The notes under the pieces are model-generated. The model did no database searches. It had not been told where the DNA came from and saw nothing but the letters and a program-made list of their open reading frames with translations. This document shows, one piece after another, positions 41,275 through 52,656 of a DNA stretch of 62,051 nucleotides (position 1 is the stretch's first letter; every line of letters starts with the position of its first letter). The stretch lies in the NCBI GenBank assembly GCA_035946335.1, contig DASYZL010000001.1, positions 1-62,051 of the forward strand, written 5' to 3'. The translations under genes were made by a program, and so were the position numbers. The stretch is from Patescibacteria group bacterium. Lineage in GTDB: Bacteria; Patescibacteriota; Microgenomatia; Levybacterales; UBA12049.

Positions 41275-41499
41275 ATGAATTTCAATTTGCCCTTTCCGCC
41301 AATTGTTTTATTCATTTTGTTTGTCTGGTCAATTTTCTGGAACGGTTTGGCACTCTGGCACGCAGCGAAAAATAATCAAAAAAACTGGTTTGTAGTCTTA
41401 TTGGTTATCCACACAGCTGGTATTCTGGAGCTTCTTTATTTATTTATTTTTGCAAAGAAAAAGTTCAAGATTGAAACAATACAATTCTGGAAACAATAG
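41275..41499 (+). CDS. small two-helix membrane protein (DUF5652-like)
   Basis: 74 aa. 'WSIFWNGLALWHAAKNNQKNWFVVLLVIHTAGILELLYLF' matches my recollection of a small membrane protein family common in candidate-phyla bacteria. A good sigma70-like promoter lies directly upstream. Confidence 0.55.
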   Translation: MNFNLPFPPIVLFILFVWSIFWNGLALWHAAKNNQKNWFVVLLVIHTAGILELLYLFIFAKKKFKIETIQFWKQ

Positions 41500-42254: not shown

Positions 42255-42309
42255 TTGTCCTAGTATAGCAGATGTTATCTAGATTTTAATCTCTTGTCAT
42301 TTATCAACA

Positions 42310-45300
42310 TCAATGTAGTTTCAAAGCTTCTATTTCTCCATTACTCGCTTCTGCATTATTTGGATCAATAAGTAGGGCATTTTCAAATGCTTGTAGCGCA
42401 TTATGATAATCTTTCATATCTAAGTAAGCATATCCAATACAACTATGTAAACGACTCCTTCTTGGTTCAATATCCAGTGCCCTTTTATATTCTTCATATG
42501 CTTCTGTTGGCTTACCTAATAATCTCAATGCATCACCTCTATACATAATGGACATCCAATTATTTGGATTAAGTGACAGTGCAAGGTTAAATTGATCGAG
42601 TGCTTCTTGATATTGCTTTTGTTGCAATTGCACATTTCCCTTGCCATTCATCGCCCAAATATCTACTGGATTTAGATCTAACGCTCTATCAAAATCTTGA
42701 AGTGCTTCGCTATATCGTTGTAAATGATGATGCGCTTCTCCTCTACGAAAAAACGCAATATCGTTTTCCGGATTAAGAGCGATAACTTTATCGTGAGAAC
42801 TCATGGCTTCTTGATACCTCCCGAGTTCATTTAATGCATTTCCTCTCCCTAAATGAGCTTCAATATTTTCAGGATCAAGCTGTGCTGCGCGGTCAAATTG
42901 CTCTAACGCATCATCATATTGCTCTAGTGATTCATAATCTAATCCTGATAATACAAGAGCGCTCGCCTCACGAACCCTGATATCATGCACGATACCCTCA
43001 GTTCTAGTTTTCGCTGCTATGACATCTGGATAGTTTATCATCCGTTTATTTGGATTATCAACCCGAAGTGAACTTGTTAAAGCAATAAGTGCTTCTTCAT
43101 ATCGTTGAAGATCTAATAAGACAAAACCTTTTTTCATCCATGCAACACTATCTTGATACTGACAAGCCTGTAATGCTTGCTCGTAAACTGCTAATGCTTC
43201 ATCTGGTCTCATAAGTTGCCTGAGCATATCCCCCTTACCCTTTAATGCGTCAATGTACTGTGGGTCAATTTGGATAGCCTTTTCAAATGCTTCCAAGGCA
43301 GCTTCATGTTCATCAATCGTAATACTTACATTGCCAATATTAAAATAAGCTAACTTATTCTCAGGAAATATTTTTATTGCTTCATCATATTTTCCTAGTG
43401 CTTCTGTTAGTTGATCTTTGTCTTCAAGCTCTTTAGCTTCCCTAACTAAATTCATTGAGTCCCTTTTATTTTGAATAGAAACACTTTTTTCTAAACTCTG
43501 AATTCTTTTTGCAAGGCTTTTATCGTGACCATTTAATGAATATGCAATATTATATGATTTTAACGCTTCAGGTAACCTATTTTGTATTTCTAATATTTCT
43601 CCTATACTTACTAATACAGATATATTTGCTTTATTTTTTGAGAGTATTTGTGCATACACCTGCAAAGCTTCTTCATATTTTTTCATGTACGTCAGCAATT
43701 TACCTTTACGAAAAGATGGCTCATAATTTCCTGGATTAAGTGCGGTTGCTTTATCATATTCTACTAGTGCATCTTCAAACCGGAACATTCTCGTGAATAT
43801 GTCACCTCTTTGCAAAAAGTAGTACTCATGAGGAGCAAGGGCAATAGCCTGATCGTATGCGGCAAGTGCCGTCGGATACTCTTTCATTTTGAATAAAATA
43901 TCACCACGATACTCATGATGGGAAACATCGTCTGGTTCAATTTGAATCAATGCATCAACTGCTGAGAGCATTCCATTTAAATCTCCAACTTTACCACTTG
44001 CTTCAAGTTTTCCATCTAATGCTACCTTATTTGAAGGATCTATTTTTAATGCTCGTTCATAAGCTTTCAATGCGGTAACAGGATTATTGCTCCGCAAGAG
44101 AATATTACCTTGCTCAACTTCCCTGTTTACCTCCTCTAAATCTTGACCAGCACGTATTTCCCTTACTTCTGACCTTGTTTTTCTCCAGACTTTTGACAAT
44201 AAAGCCATAGGACCTACCCCATCAGGTGGCGCAAGTTGCAATATTTGCTGATCACCGCTCATTTGCACATCGCCCTGAGAAACATTTGGCTCAGTTTGTG
44301 TGACATTGTATGAACGTCTCGGTTGATTCCTAGGATTTTGCCAAACTCCTAGTGTTGTTCTCTCCGGTAGAGTAACAACAGTCATCTGATCTGCAACAAT
44401 AGGATTTGGAAGATTACCAACGGTACTACTAATAGATATATATCCTACAGGTTGTTCCGGTTCACTAAGAACTCTTAAGTACGCATTGATTCTTGCTTTT
44501 CCATAATCTTCTACTGTTGCATATCTATCTTCCTGCTTTGGTGCCATACCTCTTCTTACTACCGGCCAACCTTCTTCAGGTATAGGACCAGATAATCCTT
44601 TCTGTGTGAAGGAAGGCGGTTCAACAGTTTCATGAAGTTCTAGCCAATAATCATTTTTTGCCTCTTGACTCAATTTTCCGTATTCTTTTTCATAGGACTT
44701 AGGAATTCTAAAAGGTGTCTCACCAACAGCAGACCAATAGTCTGTAACCGCAAGTCCATATTGATCACTAAAAGATGACGCTTTATTCCGGAATTGCTCT
44801 GGAGCCATAAAGAAAACTGTCCCTCTTAGTTCCTTATGCTTTGCGGGTTCAGCTCCTTTAAGCAAAGAACTGATAAGAGCAATATCAAAATCATTTAACC
44901 AAAGATTACCCTCATTCAATAATAAATTACCGAGTTTGACGTCACAATGAATTATCCCTTTTCCATGCGCAGCTTGCAGAGCACTTGCAGCCTGATATAT
45001 ATACCTCGGTAAATCATGCTGCTGAAACCTGCCGTAAACGCTAACGACATCTTTCATCGACCCATCCCTTGCGTAACCTAATGCAACAAAGTTAACTCTT
45101 CTTCCTCTCTCAAATCCCGAGCCATAATATGGCACAACATATGGATGCTGCAAGGCACTTAACCGTTCTAATGCAGTTTTTTCTATTTCAAAGCCATTTC
45201 TGACATCTTCCCCTCCCATTAGACCGTTTTGCGATTCGTTTGCAAATGCTTTTATTACCACTGGAAAACCTGTAGGCGTTTCAGTAAAGTATACTTCAGC

Positions 45301-45387
45301 ACCTCCTCCTTTACCCAATAGTCCTTGCACACGATATCCCGGATGCCCTGAATCGTTTACAATATAGCCTTGTTCAAACATACTCAT
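42310..45387 (-). CDS. Ser/Thr protein kinase (Hanks-type) fused to about 16 tetratricopeptide repeats
   Basis: The kinase has 'GKGGGAEVY' (Gly loop), 'VVIKAF' (Lys), 'IIHCDVKLGNLLL' (catalytic loop), 'NDFDIA' and 'MAPEQF'. From about aa 430 there are repeated 34-aa 'G..l....y.eAl..y..Al.ldP.n' units. No TM segment is visible. Confidence 0.85.
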   Translation of the reverse strand: MSMFEQGYIVNDSGHPGYRVQGLLGKGGGAEVYFTETPTGFPVVIKAFANESQNGLMGGEDVRNGFEIEKTALERLSALQHPYVVPYYGSGFERGRRVNFVALGYARDGSMKDVVSVYGRFQQHDLPRYIYQAASALQAAHGKGIIHCDVKLGNLLLNEGNLWLNDFDIALISSLLKGAEPAKHKELRGTVFFMAPEQFRNKASSFSDQYGLAVTDYWSAVGETPFRIPKSYEKEYGKLSQEAKNDYWLELHETVEPPSFTQKGLSGPIPEEGWPVVRRGMAPKQEDRYATVEDYGKARINAYLRVLSEPEQPVGYISISSTVGNLPNPIVADQMTVVTLPERTTLGVWQNPRNQPRRSYNVTQTEPNVSQGDVQMSGDQQILQLAPPDGVGPMALLSKVWRKTRSEVREIRAGQDLEEVNREVEQGNILLRSNNPVTALKAYERALKIDPSNKVALDGKLEASGKVGDLNGMLSAVDALIQIEPDDVSHHEYRGDILFKMKEYPTALAAYDQAIALAPHEYYFLQRGDIFTRMFRFEDALVEYDKATALNPGNYEPSFRKGKLLTYMKKYEEALQVYAQILSKNKANISVLVSIGEILEIQNRLPEALKSYNIAYSLNGHDKSLAKRIQSLEKSVSIQNKRDSMNLVREAKELEDKDQLTEALGKYDEAIKIFPENKLAYFNIGNVSITIDEHEAALEAFEKAIQIDPQYIDALKGKGDMLRQLMRPDEALAVYEQALQACQYQDSVAWMKKGFVLLDLQRYEEALIALTSSLRVDNPNKRMINYPDVIAAKTRTEGIVHDIRVREASALVLSGLDYESLEQYDDALEQFDRAAQLDPENIEAHLGRGNALNELGRYQEAMSSHDKVIALNPENDIAFFRRGEAHHHLQRYSEALQDFDRALDLNPVDIWAMNGKGNVQLQQKQYQEALDQFNLALSLNPNNWMSIMYRGDALRLLGKPTEAYEEYKRALDIEPRRSRLHSCIGYAYLDMKDYHNALQAFENALLIDPNNAEASNGEIEALKLH

Positions 45388-45393
45388 AAAATA

Positions 45394-47016
45394 TTAAGTA
45401 AAATCTTCTTCATCGAGTTTTTCTCGTTCTTTATTAACATGTTGCTGTGTTTGCACTAAAGGTTCAAACAAGTGATTCAATATGGTAAATCTACCCAAAT
45501 AGTCGGTAAATGTTTGTAAGTTTCCGGCTATTTGTTCTCTATTTGGAAGTAATTGTCCATAATAAGAACTTACTTCACTCCAACCATTTTGATCCGCAGT
45601 GCGTTTCATCCTTGTTAATAAAACTCCGATATCTTCGCTAGTCATGTCAGAAGAAATAAGTGATACTGAACCTTCACCAAGAAATAATCTTATATTTCCT
45701 TTAATAATATCTGCTAGATTTGTTACAGCTAACCGTTTTACTTCTTCTACATCTGGAGTTTCAATTCCCCTTTTTCTTGGTTCGGTAAGTTTTGCATCAT
45801 ACACTTGATCAATAAGCTCCATTCTATATTGTGAAGCTCTTGGAGAAGAACGTAATACCTGTAGTTCATTTTCTGTAAGGGAATATTTGAGGTATGCTTC
45901 AGGGTTCCATTGATACTCTTGTGTTAATGAAGCATTAATACTCTCAATATCACCTTTCAACTGACTCGTTAAGAGATAATGAAGAAAAAACAAATAATTA
46001 ACTGGAGAACCTGGAAATTCAAGGTGCACTTTTTCGTCGTTATCCTCAGTTTTCTCAGGAGAAACTTTAGGACGTTGAAGTTGTAATACGTTTTCTTGGT
46101 AAACTGGTTCTTCAACTTCTTCTATGATCTTATATTCCCCTTCGATTGATTCTTGTGGTATTGACTCTTGTTCTAGTCCAGCAATCTGACGTGCTTTTGT
46201 TTTAGCTTTTGAATGATTAGGTTGAGGTTTTTCAGAAACAACTAAAGCATTTGATTGAACATTTTGTGGCTCTGGAACAGTTGGAGTTTTTATGACACTT
46301 TCTGTCTCACTTTCATCTTCGATTATGCTTCGTTTCCTAGTAATTTCTTCATCAACTTGTTCATTGAACGTTTGCTGATGAATATCATTCCTTAGTAAAC
46401 CTTCCTCTGTACTCACAAACCTTCTTGGGCTATCCTGGATTTCAGTATTATATACACTTTCTAATGTTGGAGAAAATTGAGGTTCATTGGTTGTTCTTAA
46501 TGTTACTGTATCTTGGTCTGCTAGGAAAAAATCAACTCGAGCTACTTGCACTGACCCCAAAGTTGGAGTCATTGTCGGGTAGGATCCTGTTATTTTTTGA
46601 GTTAATTCAGACTCAGTTAAGGAAAGTTTGTTCTCATAATACTGAGTCATTGCCTTAATTAGTGCGAGTCGAATCTCGCTTTGGATTCTCACTTTCGTTG
46701 GATCATTTCTTGTTTCAGAAGTTATTCTTGAAAACTCTTGTCCAATCGTATTAATCCCCTGATGTACTTCTGAAAGTTCGTTGCAAAGTGCAATGACAAA
46801 ACCAGGATTATATAGTTCCATACTAAAATGTTGAGATTCTGGATCAGCTACATCAAGAGTAAATCGTAAACCTTGTAAAATAGCAATATCCGACATTTTA
46901 GAAATATCCACTATACTCTGTTGATTTTTTCTCCTCTCAACTCCAGTTACTTTTCTAAGAAGACTCCCTGCTCTATATAGCAATTTACTTTTTCCTGATT
47001 CAACTTGATCTTTCAT
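45394..47016 (-). CDS. hypothetical protein (acidic, no recognisable domain)
   Basis: 540-aa ORF sitting tightly between the kinase and phosphatase genes (6-nt and 19-nt gaps). The central part is E/Q/S/T/P-rich and low in complexity. There is no TM segment and no motif I recognise. Confidence 0.6.
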   Translation of the reverse strand: MKDQVESGKSKLLYRAGSLLRKVTGVERRKNQQSIVDISKMSDIAILQGLRFTLDVADPESQHFSMELYNPGFVIALCNELSEVHQGINTIGQEFSRITSETRNDPTKVRIQSEIRLALIKAMTQYYENKLSLTESELTQKITGSYPTMTPTLGSVQVARVDFFLADQDTVTLRTTNEPQFSPTLESVYNTEIQDSPRRFVSTEEGLLRNDIHQQTFNEQVDEEITRKRSIIEDESETESVIKTPTVPEPQNVQSNALVVSEKPQPNHSKAKTKARQIAGLEQESIPQESIEGEYKIIEEVEEPVYQENVLQLQRPKVSPEKTEDNDEKVHLEFPGSPVNYLFFLHYLLTSQLKGDIESINASLTQEYQWNPEAYLKYSLTENELQVLRSSPRASQYRMELIDQVYDAKLTEPRKRGIETPDVEEVKRLAVTNLADIIKGNIRLFLGEGSVSLISSDMTSEDIGVLLTRMKRTADQNGWSEVSSYYGQLLPNREQIAGNLQTFTDYLGRFTILNHLFEPLVQTQQHVNKEREKLDEEDFT

Positions 47017-47035
47017 ATATTTCTTATCATAATTA

Positions 47036-50000
47036 TCAAGTTCTTCTAGTTCTAAGTAATCTATCTTCTTCTTCTATTTTTGCTCTGAGTTTTTTTTGTC
47101 TTTCTTCTTCGGATTCTACAAGAAGATCAACTACCTGTATTGTCAAATTATCACCTGCTAAATTTCTGGATCTATAATTATTATTAAAATAGTCATATTC
47201 ATCTATCGCTCTTTGATATAAAAATCTAGCAGCATCTCGAGGATCTTTTATATTTGAAATAATATTGGCTACATATTGATTTACTTCATCATGGGAAACA
47301 GTATACCGTCTAGACAACAAAGGTATTAGATTTCTTAAAGCCTTTTTGCGCAATAATTCACGTTTCATTGTATTCCATAATCCATCAGAGGCTATTATCA
47401 ATCGTTTATGTTGTGGCTGTAAAATAATATATCTAACATCGGGCACTACCGAGCTACCAGGAAAGGTCATGCGGTCTCCAAAAGCCCTTGCTACATTTAC
47501 ACCAGCACTTCTATCTTGATACGCAAGCCTTTTTCCTCTGCTAGTATCTTCAGAAACATATTCTTTAAGTTTTCGATCCCTTTTCATCTCGCTTTCTACA
47601 TCGTGATCTACTGTGAGTTGCACCGCCCTGTTATTGCCATCAACTAATATCGCACGAGAATCACCTACATTGCCTGTAAAAAGATTATTTCCTTGAATTA
47701 ATACTGCAACTGCTGTTGCCCCATGAGGAATACTAAAGTCTTCCATTGCTTCTAACATATTTTCTGCATCTTCGAAGCTATTGTACATTGCCCTTCCCTC
47801 AGGTTCACCTTTTTTCAAATTATCGAGCAACATCTTTGGATGCAATAGAGTTAGATCCCTTGCTATAGTTATGCCTGCATTTTGATGACCTGAATGTGCA
47901 TCAACAGTTAAAAGATATACCGAATCTTTACGTCCTCCAAATTCTTCAATGTAAATCTGGTTATCTTCATTTCTTTCTCTAACGTACTCCTCAGTTCCTG
48001 GCTTCTTTGGTCCTTGACCATGGGCTATTCCTACTCCTGTTATAGGTAACTTCTCATAATGAATGCTTGCTTCAACTTTTATTTTTCCATCACTTCCAGC
48101 TGGATTAAAGACAGCATCTGGGTCTTCCACTTCAACTAATGCACTTCCATCCAAAATTGGGCTATCAGGTTTGGCACTTTTTTTATCATGTATCTCATCT
48201 ATTTTTCTTAAAAGTAATGGATTTGACTGAGAATCATCTGATAACTTGTTTTCTCTGTTTTTTAACCATTGAGCTAAAGTTTCTCTTTCCGATTCACTCT
48301 GAAGGAGTTCATCAAACAATTCGCGTACAACATCTTCATCCAAAATATTATTAAGCTGATGAATTCTATTATATTCTTCACTAAATGGACTTTCTTCATT
48401 AAAGGTAAGAAAATTAACTAAGTTTTCTCTTGTCGTATACGCTCCACCATTTCCGTGTATGTCGCTCGTGAGAAAGTTAATATCTTCTAGTATCTCCTTC
48501 CAAAATTCTCTATGTTGCTTTAATTTTGGATGAAAACCAAAAGTACCCGCAAGATCATCGATTGCTCTCCTTGATTCTCCTCGCTCTCTTACTCCATCAA
48601 TAACAGCTACTCCTCCTCTACCAATAAGCATAAGAGCCTCTTCCCCTCCATGCAGAGCCAATTCAAGTGCCGATTTGAATACATTTCTATTTGCTGACTG
48701 AGATCGTACTACTGCTGGTGTTACTGATGTGCTACTGCTTATTTTACCTTTCTTATCTTCTTCATCTTCACTAGATGTCGGAGGATTAACTGTGGCATCA
48801 ATGGAAGGATTGTTGCTGCCCCCGCTAACTGGTTGATTACCAATACGTATGCGTTTTATTCTATTTTTTTCATAAAAATGATATCCAACCCACGTTACTG
48901 TAATCAATGCAAGAGTACCAAGTGCTATACCCACACCGAGCAAGCCTCCATTTTTGCATTCTCCAGCGATTGTACTGCCACAGTCACCATCTGACGGTAG
49001 TGGATTAGTAGGCGGTGTTCCACTATGTTTTGTGGTACTCGTCTGCGTTAGTGTAGGATTTGGCTTCGCAGTGTTGGTTGGAACAGGCGTAGAATTTTCC
49101 GTAGAAGATGGAGTCGGACTGGGATTTGGAGTAGGCGTTTGGGTACCAGTAGGATGAGTTATTACTCCAGAGGTGTTGTTGGCAGTATCAACAGTAACCT
49201 GAGATAAATGATTTCCAACTTCGCCGTGTGCTGATAATCCTGAAATGTGATCTATTAACTCCATGCTTTGAATAGTTCCGTCCCGGTTATAGACTATATG
49301 CACATTTTCCCCATCCAGATATAACTCGTGTTGGTCTGTCATTTCGCTCGCTCTTCCAAAAGCAGATTTGGTTACATCAAGCGTTTTATGGTCATTACTA
49401 CCAAGAATTAACTGTGCCAATTCTTTTTGTGACATTTTTGCAGACTTACCATTTTCAATTACTGTAACTAATTCGTTTGAATTTGGATTGAACTGTTCAT
49501 TATTTCCCTCAACAACTATTGCTTTCTGATATCCTTTGGTATGATCATAATATATCCATGCATTTCCTTTCGTGTTTTCTCCCCAGTCATGGTATCCCTG
49601 GGTTTGAGACCAGTTGTCACGTCCTGTTTGCCAATCAGCTTGATTTTGATCTACTGTGATTTGCGTGTGACTGAGATCAGTTTCAACTTTTTTCAATACA
49701 CTGGTATAATCAACTGGCTGCGCAGTCAGTTGCTCAGCATGTAATTCTGTTGCAGATACTGCATCATGTGTAGCTAGTGATGTGATATGTTCAGCGTGAT
49801 CAACCGCAAGAGAAGCAGCATGAACAGTTTGCGACAATAGTTCAGCGGCTGTTGCGGTAGCTGCAATTAATCCACTTGCAGATAGCACACCCCGAACAAT
49901 TGTCCTGTTTCTTGCAAATCGTGCTTGCCATTTTGCGTCTTCCCGGGCTCGATCATCAAGTTGTTGCGATACTTCCAGAGCAATTTGATTCAGCGTCGCT

Positions 50001-50929
50001 TGATTAACATCTCCAATTTCTTGTGCAAGCTGTTTTCTTTTTTCCACTAATTCAGGGAGCATAGATTCATCACGGTAATATCCTCTTTGTATCCGCTGAT
50101 CTATTTCTTCATAAAGACGGATACGTTGCGAGTCAGATCCTTCTAGAAGTAATTGATTGCTTGCTTCAATATCTTCCTGGACATCTTTTAGTCTTTTGTG
50201 TCCTTTCGCTCCGGCAGTTGCAACCGCTGCTTCTTGGCTTAACGGAGAAGCAAGAGCGCCAACATAGGAAAAACCTTTTTGTATTACTTCCTTTACGTTT
50301 CTTGGCTTATATGCGTTCACTGCCGCTACATTTGCTTTAATTCGCTGTAACCAATGCATATACTTTTCTCCTCTTCCCGTTGCCTGCAATTGTAGCCGTG
50401 CAATCTCAACAGCTTCCTCAGCTTTCCTATGCGCTTCATGCATATCTCCTATAGATTTTGCGGCTCTGTGCGCTACGACCAATCCCGCACCAATCGGAGG
50501 CGCTACTATTCCTGCTGCAGTCAACGCTCCCGCGATTGCGTAGGTCGCGAACTGTTCACGTTTTCTGAATGTGTTTGCGACAGCATTAGCAAGATCTCTT
50601 GCATTATTTCTATCTGCTACCTGTAGCGTACTATTTTGCTGTAACGCTGCATAATTTGTTCTCTCAGCAGTCTGCATTACTAAAGCTGCATCAGCAACTA
50701 TTGGAGATTGGGCAAACTGTTGTCGCTGCTCTCTCCTGAGTTCCGCCACTACATCTCCTCTGATAAATGGTGTTAAATCATAGGTAAACGGCCGTTCATA
50801 CCAATGAAGCTCTTTCACCCTCGAAGCAACGATGTCTTCAACTTTAGCGCCAAACTGAGCTTCTGACTGCAAATAATCAGCTTGGGCAGGAGAAACTACT
50901 GGTTTAGATTGTAATTCGATTTGTGACAT
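47036..50929 (-). CDS. large receptor-like PP2C (PPM-family) Ser/Thr phosphatase
   Basis: The C-terminal domain carries the full ordered PPM motif set: 'RERNED', 'LTVDAHSGH', 'HGATAVAVLI', 'NVGDSRAIL', 'LTVDHD', 'ARAFGD', 'IIASDGLWN', 'AGDNLTIQVV'. A TM helix 'LLGVGIALGTLALITVTWVGY' is followed by 'KNRIKRIR', and a Pro/Thr-rich linker precedes it. Confidence 0.85.
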   Translation of the reverse strand: MSQIELQSKPVVSPAQADYLQSEAQFGAKVEDIVASRVKELHWYERPFTYDLTPFIRGDVVAELRREQRQQFAQSPIVADAALVMQTAERTNYAALQQNSTLQVADRNNARDLANAVANTFRKREQFATYAIAGALTAAGIVAPPIGAGLVVAHRAAKSIGDMHEAHRKAEEAVEIARLQLQATGRGEKYMHWLQRIKANVAAVNAYKPRNVKEVIQKGFSYVGALASPLSQEAAVATAGAKGHKRLKDVQEDIEASNQLLLEGSDSQRIRLYEEIDQRIQRGYYRDESMLPELVEKRKQLAQEIGDVNQATLNQIALEVSQQLDDRAREDAKWQARFARNRTIVRGVLSASGLIAATATAAELLSQTVHAASLAVDHAEHITSLATHDAVSATELHAEQLTAQPVDYTSVLKKVETDLSHTQITVDQNQADWQTGRDNWSQTQGYHDWGENTKGNAWIYYDHTKGYQKAIVVEGNNEQFNPNSNELVTVIENGKSAKMSQKELAQLILGSNDHKTLDVTKSAFGRASEMTDQHELYLDGENVHIVYNRDGTIQSMELIDHISGLSAHGEVGNHLSQVTVDTANNTSGVITHPTGTQTPTPNPSPTPSSTENSTPVPTNTAKPNPTLTQTSTTKHSGTPPTNPLPSDGDCGSTIAGECKNGGLLGVGIALGTLALITVTWVGYHFYEKNRIKRIRIGNQPVSGGSNNPSIDATVNPPTSSEDEEDKKGKISSSTSVTPAVVRSQSANRNVFKSALELALHGGEEALMLIGRGGVAVIDGVRERGESRRAIDDLAGTFGFHPKLKQHREFWKEILEDINFLTSDIHGNGGAYTTRENLVNFLTFNEESPFSEEYNRIHQLNNILDEDVVRELFDELLQSESERETLAQWLKNRENKLSDDSQSNPLLLRKIDEIHDKKSAKPDSPILDGSALVEVEDPDAVFNPAGSDGKIKVEASIHYEKLPITGVGIAHGQGPKKPGTEEYVRERNEDNQIYIEEFGGRKDSVYLLTVDAHSGHQNAGITIARDLTLLHPKMLLDNLKKGEPEGRAMYNSFEDAENMLEAMEDFSIPHGATAVAVLIQGNNLFTGNVGDSRAILVDGNNRAVQLTVDHDVESEMKRDRKLKEYVSEDTSRGKRLAYQDRSAGVNVARAFGDRMTFPGSSVVPDVRYIILQPQHKRLIIASDGLWNTMKRELLRKKALRNLIPLLSRRYTVSHDEVNQYVANIISNIKDPRDAARFLYQRAIDEYDYFNNNYRSRNLAGDNLTIQVVDLLVESEEERQKKLRAKIEEEDRLLRTRRT

Positions 50930-50949
50930 AGTCTTTATTTAGTTTCCAT

Positions 50950-51276
50950 TCAGCCTTGTAAATAGTTTTTTCTGAAATCTGAAAACGCGACAATATATAC
51001 TTCCTGTATATTTGGCACATTCGATTTGAGAAACGTATCAACCTGTTCTTTCGATGGAGACTGCTGCATGAAAGTGCAAAATTCGCCAAGCTTATCAACC
51101 GGCACATAATCAACAACACGCTCAATAAGAAAATCATCGAACTTGATAAATAACTCCAGAATTATATCTTCTTTGGTAGCATCATAAACAGTAGTTATGC
51201 CGGATTGAACGAGAATATCTTCCAGATATGAACGAACTTCTTTCGATATGGCGGCTGTTTTTTGTCCTGTTTTCAT
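50950..51276 (-). CDS. hypothetical small acidic protein
   Basis: 108-aa ORF that is the first gene of the signalling operon, ending 20 nt upstream of the PP2C gene start. It looks helical and has no recognisable motif. Confidence 0.5.
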   Translation of the reverse strand: MKTGQKTAAISKEVRSYLEDILVQSGITTVYDATKEDIILELFIKFDDFLIERVVDYVPVDKLGEFCTFMQQSPSKEQVDTFLKSNVPNIQEVYIVAFSDFRKNYLQG

Positions 51277-51416
51277 GGAATGTTGTAATGCTAAAAACGA
51301 ATTACTATTATAGGACGCTGAGGTTGTAAAGTCAATGTAATATACGAAAAATGTGTCTCATTACCGCATTCTTTAAAATAGCCTCGGACGCCTATTGACT
51401 GCATTGGACGGCCAAG

Positions 51417-51540
51417 CAAAATTAGTCTACCACTTTCTTATAATAATGCAAGTCTTATGCCAAGCAAGCTATATTTACCTCTTTTACCATTATTTTTAGT
51501 TTTCATTTAATGGAAGGGATAAATTCTCCAAAATTAGTCT
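51417..51540. repeat. 12-nt direct repeat CAAAATTAGTCT (copies at 51417..51428 and 51529..51540)
   Basis: Both copies were read directly from the sequence. They belong to a cluster of short repeats in the same intergenic region, which also includes ATAGCCTCG at 51379..51387 and 51669..51677. Confidence 0.35.
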
Positions 51541-51564
51541 CAAAATAAGTATTTTCCAGTGGTC

Positions 51565-51579
51565 ATTGTCTGAGACAAT
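51565..51579. promoter_or_regulatory. perfect 7-1-7 palindrome ATTGTCT-G-AGACAAT (operator-like)
   Basis: Read directly from the sequence. It lies in the 505-bp non-coding gap between the divergent genes 50950..51276 and 51782..52600. Confidence 0.4.
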
Positions 51580-51633
51580 TTTCCAGCCTTCCCTCCTTTT
51601 GAGGCGAAGCACCTGGAAATTTTTCACTTTTTC

Positions 51634-51653
51634 TGTCTCATACATCTGAGACA
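51634..51653. promoter_or_regulatory. inverted repeat TGTCTCA-6 nt-TGAGACA (same half-site as the 51565 palindrome)
   Basis: Read directly from the sequence. The half-site TGTCT(C/G)A recurs at 51354..51360, 51536..51542 (AGTCTCA) and 51783..51788. Confidence 0.4.
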
Positions 51654-51781
51654 CTATTTTTAGCTATATAGCCTCGTTTTTACGGCAATATTTCGCTTTA
51701 GTCCTTGTAAAGAGTAGGAAGATAGGTGCTCGTGATTATGACTGATGTGATAAAATACTCTCTAATCCCTACCCTTATGCA

Positions 51782-52600
51782 ATGTCTCTACCGCATATTA
51801 CTAAAAAACAATTCGAAATACTTACGCTTATCTATTCCTACAGATTCATTAACCGCATACACATACAAACCATCCTTAACCACAAAAACCACCGACGGAT
51901 ACATGCATGGCTCAATGACTTAGGAGAAAAGGAATGTATCGGAAGAATTTACTCAAAGAAAATGCCGGAGAACACCAAACCCGCAGTGTATTTTCTTGGG
52001 AAATATGGCCGCAAAATCCTGCAGAAACATTTTAGTGAACTAAAGAATAAAGAGGGGAAAAACAAACCGGACAAAATAGCATTGTATCAACTCACCAAAA
52101 CATACAAAGATAATCAGAGAACTGAAGTTTTCCGCCTCAGTTGTCTTGCGCTTGTCGATATATCCATCACAACCACAGCGTATGGCATCAGAGAAAGAGT
52201 GCATATTGCATTCCGATCACTCACTGAATGTGCCAAAACCCAGTTGATTGAAAAATTTGATTCATATGTACGAGTACAGAAGAAAAACGGAAAGAAGAAA
52301 CGCTACGCTTTTTTATATATTTCAAATAGAACACCCCGCAGGTTTATTCGCTACCGCATCGCTGAAATTATTAAGTTGCTTGATCGCGAATGGGACTCTG
52401 AAACAGATATTCCCCGACCGGTAGTTTTGTGCATCTGTTCCAATTTTTCTATCCGTAATTACGCCTGTAAAATCTATGAAACAAAAATGAAATACTATAA
52501 GAGAACTGACAAGCAGGTTACCTTCCGACTAACTACCCTTCATGAATATAAAACACAAGGGTTAGGCGGTAGTTACTGGTTGCTACCAAAGACTCCATAA
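51782..52600 (+). CDS. replication-relaxation (Replic_Relax)-like protein
   Basis: The N-terminal 'ITKKQFEILTLIYSYRFINRIHIQTIL...RRIHAWLNDLGEKECIGRIY...KPAVYFLGKYGRKIL' has the winged-helix layout of replication-relaxation family proteins from plasmids and integrated elements. It is one of only three plus-strand genes. Confidence 0.45.
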   Translation: MSLPHITKKQFEILTLIYSYRFINRIHIQTILNHKNHRRIHAWLNDLGEKECIGRIYSKKMPENTKPAVYFLGKYGRKILQKHFSELKNKEGKNKPDKIALYQLTKTYKDNQRTEVFRLSCLALVDISITTTAYGIRERVHIAFRSLTECAKTQLIEKFDSYVRVQKKNGKKKRYAFLYISNRTPRRFIRYRIAEIIKLLDREWDSETDIPRPVVLCICSNFSIRNYACKIYETKMKYYKRTDKQVTFRLTTLHEYKTQGLGGSYWLLPKTP

Positions 52601-52656
52601 GCGTTATAATGCTTTTTAGCTTCCTAAAAATCAAAATAAGCATGCGATCCTTTTTT

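Follow-up and report, generated by a model that had tools for sequence, protein, structure and literature searches.

The window analysed here is the whole 62-kb contig DASYZL010000001.1 (62,051 nucleotides) of a Patescibacteria group bacterium whose genome amounts to 1.02 Mb and is 97% complete. In size and gene content the genome is in keeping with Patescibacteria. The contig is a long minus-strand glycosylation island with PMT-like, YfhO, GT1 and GT2 glycosyltransferase and Wzx flippase genes. Within it lies a cassette of four minus-strand genes, separated by spacers of 20, 19 and 6 nt, that encode a small DUF5663-like protein (P0001), a large membrane protein with a PP2C phosphatase domain (P0002), an orphan (P0003) and a Hanks-type Ser/Thr kinase followed by tetratricopeptide repeats (TPRs; P0004). 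An initial annotation of this DNA had described the four genes, GT2 genes on both sides, a 505-bp repeat-rich gap and a replication-relaxation-like gene on the opposite strand. The coordinates, strand and spacers of the cassette genes were reproduced exactly from the table of open reading frames (ORFs), both neighbours matched GT2 families, the gap proved to be enriched in TGTCTCA heptamers and the opposite-strand gene matched Replic_Relax.

The comparison of gene order with related genomes showed that positions 42255-52656 are a 10.4-kb insertion into a conserved glycosylation operon. In four relatives (G001, G015, G014 and G004), which represent four genera including the genus of the present genome, the operon is colinear gene by gene and the orthologues of the two GT2 genes (250 and 304 aa) lie directly side by side, 0-3 nt apart or overlapping; hence the segment between them is extra in this genome. 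The distance between the 690-aa gene and the Wzx flippase gene is 13.3 kb here, and that between their orthologues in the same-genus genome G001 is 2.9 kb. The insertion is present in single copy in the genome and contains the four cassette genes, the 505-bp gap and the relaxase-like gene. Orthologues of P0003, of the P0002-type PP2C or of the P0004-type kinase domain were not found in 40 relatives; the kinase-domain search of these genomes gave one weak match, in G005. The GC content at third codon positions (GC3) of the kinase (0.25, 2nd percentile), orphan (0.20) and PP2C (0.26) genes falls within percentiles 0-3 of the 509 long ORFs of the genome (mean 0.339, sd 0.041), and that of the flanking genes spans 0.37-0.46, the two GT2 genes abutting the insertion having 0.37 and 0.46. 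The empty site in four genera, where the two glycosylation clusters are contiguous without the block, the GC3 break at the boundaries and the relaxase-family neighbour strongly support one suggestion of the initial annotation, that of a horizontally inserted module.

Table 1. Features of the insertion and its borders in the window
Feature	Position	Strand	Basis
Kinase + TPR gene P0004, 1025 aa	42310..45387	-	Pkinase + TPR families
Orphan gene P0003, 540 aa	45394..47016	-	no family assigned
Membrane PP2C gene P0002, 1297 aa	47036..50929	-	PF00481
DUF5663-like gene P0001, 108 aa	50950..51276	-	PF18908, sub-threshold
Non-coding gap, 505 bp	51277..51781	.	TGTCTCA/TGAGACA palindromes; candidate operator or oriT-like region
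Promoter-like site TTGACT-17-TATAAT upstream of cassette	51307..51335	-	pattern match only, 11/12 consensus
Replic_Relax / MOBC-type relaxase-like gene, 272 aa	51782..52600	+	PF13814
Insertion, 10,402 bp	42255..52656	.	synteny vs four related genomes
GT2 gene, left edge of insertion site, 250 aa	41502..42254	-	PF00535; orthologue abuts 304-aa GT2 orthologue in four relatives
GT2 gene, right edge of insertion site, 304 aa	52657..53571	-	GT2 families; synteny

The insertion created a 55-nt spacer (42255-42309) upstream of the 250-aa GT2 gene, which in the relatives is translationally coupled to the upstream GT2 gene, and this spacer holds a TG-extended -10-like site (TATACT). Downstream of the kinase gene, no convincing terminator precedes the next GT2 gene. 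As a side effect of the insertion, the downstream half of the interrupted operon may have come under the promoter of the cassette, a suggestion drawn from pattern matches only. The GT2 gene is separated from the 690-aa GT-C/PBP-pedestal gene by a small plus-strand ORF (41275-41499), and the same position in the same-genus genome also has a plus-strand ORF (L191, 9533-9787). The glycosylation island (window positions 1-47000) has a GC content of 0.34-0.38, below the 0.396 of the genome, and several of its 5-kb segments are tetranucleotide outliers.

Proteins encoded by the cassette

P0004 contains a Pkinase domain (PF00069, residues 18-241; 85.6 bits, Pfam gathering cut-off 31.7), and its overall architecture consists of a kinase region (18-300), a linker and 16 TPRs (420-1011), of which 14 units score at least 6/8 consensus positions and two (454-487 and 842-875) were assigned by eye. 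Neither a hydrophobic segment by hydropathy nor a PASTA domain by Pfam was detected, in agreement with the soluble kinase with about 16 TPRs of the initial annotation. The catalytic motifs are GKGGGA25, K46, HCD147, N154, DFD166 and APE195. Two of them are variants: HCD keeps the Asp, with Arg changed to Cys, and DFD keeps the Mg-binding Asp, with Gly changed to Asp. DFD is also found in the one close homologue of P0004, P0011, which has a normal HRD. A word-index search of 5.8 billion proteins with the linker matched only the query itself, and scans with the kinase alignment retrieved only generic kinases of 25-37% identity. The genome encodes three Hanks kinases in total and a single PP2C, that of P0002. 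The two further kinases, with no PP2C nearby, are a 351-aa protein with an HGD catalytic loop (C21:1793-2848), adjoining a Cys-rich secreted-looking protein of 669 aa, and a 564-aa protein with HRD/DFG motifs (C11:43500-45194).

The PP2C domain of P0002 (PF00481, residues 982-1191) scores 107 bits, above the Pfam cut-off, has all four metal-binding motifs (RERNED984-989 with E988-D989, DAHSG1010, DGLW1182 and DNLT1260) and, among solved structures, aligns best to plant-type PP2Cs (HAB1/ABI1). With catalytic residues kept in both, the kinase and the PP2C look active. Hydrophobic segments were located by hydropathy at residues 128-153, 344-365 (weak) and 661-686 (strong, then KNRIKRIR), and the remaining four proteins of the insertion have none. 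The topology of P0002 is deduced from hydropathy rather than from a dedicated topology program. These segments and the absence of an N-terminal signal sequence suggest that the PP2C is in the cytoplasm: residues 1-343 and 687-1297, the PP2C among them, are likely cytoplasmic, and the external part likely comprises only ~295 residues (367-660, including a Pro/Thr-rich stalk at 586-660). From the receptor-like phosphatase of the initial annotation the membrane anchor is retained, but the external domain is likely smaller than described there. Residues 1-960 were homologue-free in the word-index search of 5.8 billion proteins.

P0003 is acidic (pI 4.9) and is composed of a helical N-domain, a disordered Ser/Thr/Glu-rich middle (135-333) and a helical C-domain (334-537). 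In the AlphaFold2 (AF2) model the C-domain reaches pLDDT values of 80-90 and the N-domain is of lower confidence; the model had no fold match in the PDB. No match was obtained in Pfam, NCBIfam, PADLOC, PHROG or PDB; the initial annotation had described it as an acidic protein without assigned function. The word-index search of 5.8 billion proteins recovered the query alone, metagenome, genome and viral contigs yielded nothing when scanned with patterns from the orphan alignment, and a phage search gave no match.

P0001 had likewise been left without function, with HHpred and Foldseek proposed as a check, and a DUF5663-like assignment was now obtained; its PDB sequence and fold searches returned nothing significant. 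The match to DUF5663 (PF18908) is weak, 21.3 bits for a cut-off of 23.7. The protein is 28-38% identical to proteins in relatives (best 38%, E 1e-22), two of which were scanned and both pass the DUF5663 cut-off. It is acidic, with a five-helix AF2 model (pLDDT 84.7), and its gene lies 20 nt upstream of that of P0002 on the same strand. Homologues of P0001 were found in 5 of the 40 relatives, in all five with a large gene within 41 nt downstream; three of these large genes are complete, with products of 996, 1612 and 1900 aa, and the other two run off their contigs (at least 293 and at least 720 aa). The class-wide PP2C search added a genome of another family, G049, in which a DUF5663 gene (27.3 bits) is 15 nt upstream of a 2442-aa giant carrying Pkinase (93.6 bits) and PP2C in tandem (L227, G049:C2, 9091-16791), set among cohesin/dockerin-type genes and outside any glycosyltransferase operon. 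Over its N-terminal ~830 residues this giant is 37% identical to that of G018 (E 1e-139), which bears a GT9 head, so one chassis carries different heads across lineages. The 1900-aa giant of G011 likewise showed no homology to the G018-type chassis, so that DUF5663 proteins pair with more than one chassis. The neighbours of the DUF5663 genes in relatives (243 and 231 aa, in divergent orientation) are unrelated to the relaxase-like protein, and a literature search found no paper mentioning DUF5663. Other class members with related domains include a 4136-aa ORF with PP2C and two FHA domains (L228, G344:C6, 1-12410), a 734-aa DnaJ + PP2C fusion (L230, G361:C62, 4375-6579) and a 16,236-aa open frame with kinase-like matches (G198:C2).

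Like the giants of such modules, P0002 has hydrophobic segments that are weak and rich in Gly/Ala, and it bears an enzyme head at its C-terminus. Its candidacy as a homologue of the G018-type chassis was dropped after BLASTP and hhalign comparisons showed no relation. The G018 locus links DUF5663-giant pairs to type IV secretion-like genes: it contains (L026, G018:C30, 1013-11464) a type IV secretion system (T4SS) pilin, the DUF5663 gene, the 1612-aa giant with the GT9 head, a 574-aa HipA/PI3K-like protein and a PrgI-family protein. This proximity to pilin and PrgI genes, the resemblance of the P0002 phosphatase to plant-type PP2Cs and the swapping of heads on one chassis would be in keeping with host-directed effectors, in which the DUF5663 protein would act as chaperone in a Patescibacteria type IV secretion-like export of the giant PP2C protein, possibly together with the kinase, into the membrane or cytoplasm of a host. 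However, the strong membrane segment with its positive-inside flank fits the membrane of the producer itself, P0002 has no secretion signal, the T4SS genes of this genome are on other contigs, and a kinase co-encoded with its own phosphatase suggests action in one compartment, so that export of this kind seems very unlikely. A broader proposal, also unlikely in our view, is that DUF5663-partnered giants form a Patescibacteria-wide chassis with swappable heads (GT9, kinase, PP2C, DnaJ, FHA) moved between lineages by mobile elements; the cassette would then be a mobile set of phospho-signalling effectors, which may be exported or directed at a host, and not a housekeeping regulator.

Mobility, recurrence and function of the insertion

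The 272-aa relaxase-like protein is basic (pI 10) and matches PF13814 at 25.5 bits, against a cut-off of 25.3, over its N-terminal 76 residues only; all six aligned homologues match the family (best E 3.3e-9). Homologues are patchily distributed: 8 of 41 genomes have them, at up to four places each. In three of five examined loci of relatives the homologue is just downstream of a ~920-aa VirD4/TraG-like protein, and in three of five large serine recombinases are within 1-4 kb. For streptococcal mobilizable elements, PF13814 has been equated with the MOBC relaxase superfamily, whose members there form compact modules with a VirD4 coupling protein and a serine integrase (PMC5357655). A plasmid search with the protein gave no match. 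The gap between the relaxase-like gene and the divergent cassette has 4 of the 14 TGTCTCA heptamers of the window (0.11 expected, ~35-fold enriched, Poisson p ~6e-6), which form palindromes, and inverted repeats at 51567-51577/51634-51644 and 51634-51653. This palindrome-rich gap may be an operator or an oriT.

Homologues of the relaxase-like protein in relatives have GmrSD/HEPN and KAP NTPase genes as neighbours. Two loci of G006 (L209, G006:C11, 6986-12306; L211, G006:C21, 3189-9092), in which they lie near GmrSD + HEPN, KAP NTPase and large serine recombinases, look like mobile elements with defence cargo. The presence of the same relaxase family next to the cassette raises the idea that the cassette is itself anti-phage or anti-mobile-element cargo, with the TPRs sensing an invader protein, the kinase phosphorylating host targets to stop growth and the PP2C restraining the kinase. 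The kinase domain indeed scores 111 bits on the PADLOC model PD-T4-6 and 93 bits on mad6, but these matches span the generic kinase fold only and any Hanks kinase would give them. PADLOC gave no match for P0001, P0002, P0003 or the relaxase-like protein, the PADLOC and PHROG scans together yielding only kinase, TPR or low-complexity matches and one weak replication-initiation match for the relaxase-like protein. Moreover, no defence system is known to have the composition of the cassette, no phage or viral copy was found in the phage search and the viral-contig scan, and DUF5663-giant pairs are common on chromosomes and do not resemble the usual genes of defence islands. A defensive function is hence considered improbable.

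An exhaustive HMMER search of 1.84 billion representatives gave one homologue of the orphan, P0007 (35% identity), on the 4.4-kb metagenome contig L030 from sample SRR22387911. The order there is PP2C protein, orphan homologue and kinase + TPR, with spacers of 8 and 7 nt and GC3 values of 0.21-0.28. The triad proteins are 34-36% identical to those of the window, the kinase at 36% and colinear through the linker and first TPRs. This order indicates that three of the four cassette genes have been kept together across a deep divergence. The co-occurrence of the four genes in other genomes, which the initial annotation had proposed to examine, is thus partial: the PP2C-orphan-kinase triad recurs once, but not in the 40 relatives.

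Few genomes of the class encode a PP2C or a Hanks kinase, and in the family hardly any do. At E <= 1e-5, 27 of the 401 class genomes had PF00481, in every case above the curated cut-off, and 41 had PF00069 (27 above the curated cut-off); six had both, where 2.8 are expected (p = 0.045). Other same-family genomes of the class sample (at least 20) had no PP2C and gave one sub-threshold kinase match. This rarity bears on the proposal of the initial annotation that the cassette is a dedicated regulator of the glycosylation machinery, its kinase and phosphatase controlling neighbouring glycosyltransferases or the flippase and its location reflecting function. The cassette does lie inside the operon in the same orientation, its kinase gene is followed by no convincing terminator before the next GT2 gene, the Pro/Thr-rich external stalk of P0002 would be a plausible substrate for the PMT-like enzymes encoded nearby, and kinase/PP2C pairs control envelope synthesis in other phyla. 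Nevertheless, the four relatives keep the same operon without the cassette, so that no linkage of the cassette to envelope genes is conserved across them, the fused version of G049 is found outside glycosyltransferase operons, and GC3 marks the cassette genes as foreign. With both enzymes so scarce in the family, such a dedicated role appears quite improbable.

The reading that we favour, with moderate confidence, is that the cassette is the cargo of a decayed integrative mobilizable element (IME) and constitutes a PP2C-headed "DUF5663 + giant membrane protein" module, a self-contained phospho-switch not specific to the flanking glycosyltransferases. The element is read as decayed because the insertion has neither coupling protein nor recombinase. 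As envisaged, the switch would act by reversible Ser/Thr phosphorylation in the cell's own cytoplasm. The soluble kinase would dock its partners through the array of 16 TPRs and write Ser/Thr phosphates, and the orphan, with its Ser/Thr-rich disordered middle, would be the likeliest adaptor or substrate. The membrane-anchored PP2C would remove the phosphate marks at the membrane, possibly gated by the external loop of ~295 residues, and the small helical DUF5663 protein could be a partner or chaperone of the giant protein.

Several observations weigh against this reading. The mobile-element origin rests on one borderline relaxase-like gene together with synteny and GC3. No direct or inverted repeats of at least 8 nt, att-like or terminal, were found at the junctions, and neither a coupling protein nor an integrase or recombinase is present in the insertion, nor a remnant of them in the gap; genes of both kinds are present on other contigs of the genome. 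The compositional comparison gave a divided answer, GC3 singling out the three large cassette genes whereas overall GC and whole-sequence tetranucleotide distance did not make the block an outlier. With a GC3 of 0.41 the relaxase-like gene itself departs from the cargo genes, so that the insertion may have been put together as a mosaic in more than one event. The triad was met only once outside this genome, on a contig cut inside the PP2C gene. Finally, the N-terminal 960 residues of P0002 gave no BLASTP match to the G018/G014/G017/G049 chassis and an hhalign probability of 1.4%, and the P0001-P0002 pair is placed in the "DUF5663 + giant protein" class by partner gene and architecture only.

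Relation to known systems

If our interpretation holds, the locus would show how Hanks kinase/PP2C signalling can be gained in this class of tiny-genome CPR (candidate phyla radiation)/Patescibacteria, in which each family passes the Pfam cut-off in only ~7% of the 401 genomes: a ready-made unit of kinase, phosphatase and adaptor would arrive by a mobile-element-type insertion, and this route is visible because the locus has a clean empty site. Moreover, it would connect the enzymes of Ser/Thr signalling with the DUF5663 + giant protein modules, so far undescribed, and would offer a tractable entry to the function of these giants since enzyme activities can be assayed. The glycosylation context seems to be an accident of insertion, a caution on inferring function from neighbourhood.

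In comparison with the class 8 IMEs (PF13814/MOBC relaxase, VirD4 and serine integrase; PMC5357655), the insertion has the same relaxase-like family, and relatives have the full arrangement; unlike them, it is devoid of coupling protein, integrase and recognisable ends and would be at best a decayed remnant. With the "DUF5663 + giant protein" pairs the cassette shares the small acidic helical gene 20 nt upstream of that of a protein of >1000 aa with a C-terminal enzyme head, and kinase + PP2C heads are known in G049. It differs from them in that the N-terminal part of P0002 has no detectable homology to theirs, the kinase has a gene of its own and an additional orphan gene is interposed.

Hanks kinases and PP2Cs encoded in one operon are well known from PknB/PstP of Mycobacterium and PrkC/PrpC of Bacillus. 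The cassette has the same pairing and, as in M. tuberculosis PstP, a membrane PP2C with an extracellular domain, its phosphatase is membrane-anchored. By contrast, the kinase has no membrane segment or PASTA domains, the phosphatase is a 1297-aa protein with ~960 unique residues, and the locus is an insertion absent from relatives instead of a conserved division/cell-wall cluster. PknG of Mycobacterium and Corynebacterium is soluble and has its Hanks kinase domain ahead of TPRs acting as a docking scaffold, and P0004 has the same order of domains, differing in its 16 TPRs, the HCD/DFD variant, the absence of a rubredoxin domain and the lack of an FHA-type substrate gene nearby. In view of PstP and PknG, the inverted layout proposed in the initial annotation was overstated, although its components, a soluble kinase and an anchored phosphatase, agree with the hydropathy. 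The TerY-P triad, said to have been delineated by Anantharaman, Iyer and Aravind in 2012, reportedly comprises a vWA protein, a PP2C and a Ser/Thr kinase. The third protein of the cassette, P0003, is helical/disordered with no vWA match, and gene order and accessory domains differ; nonetheless, both sets would unite a phosphatase, a kinase and a third protein in a horizontally travelling unit.

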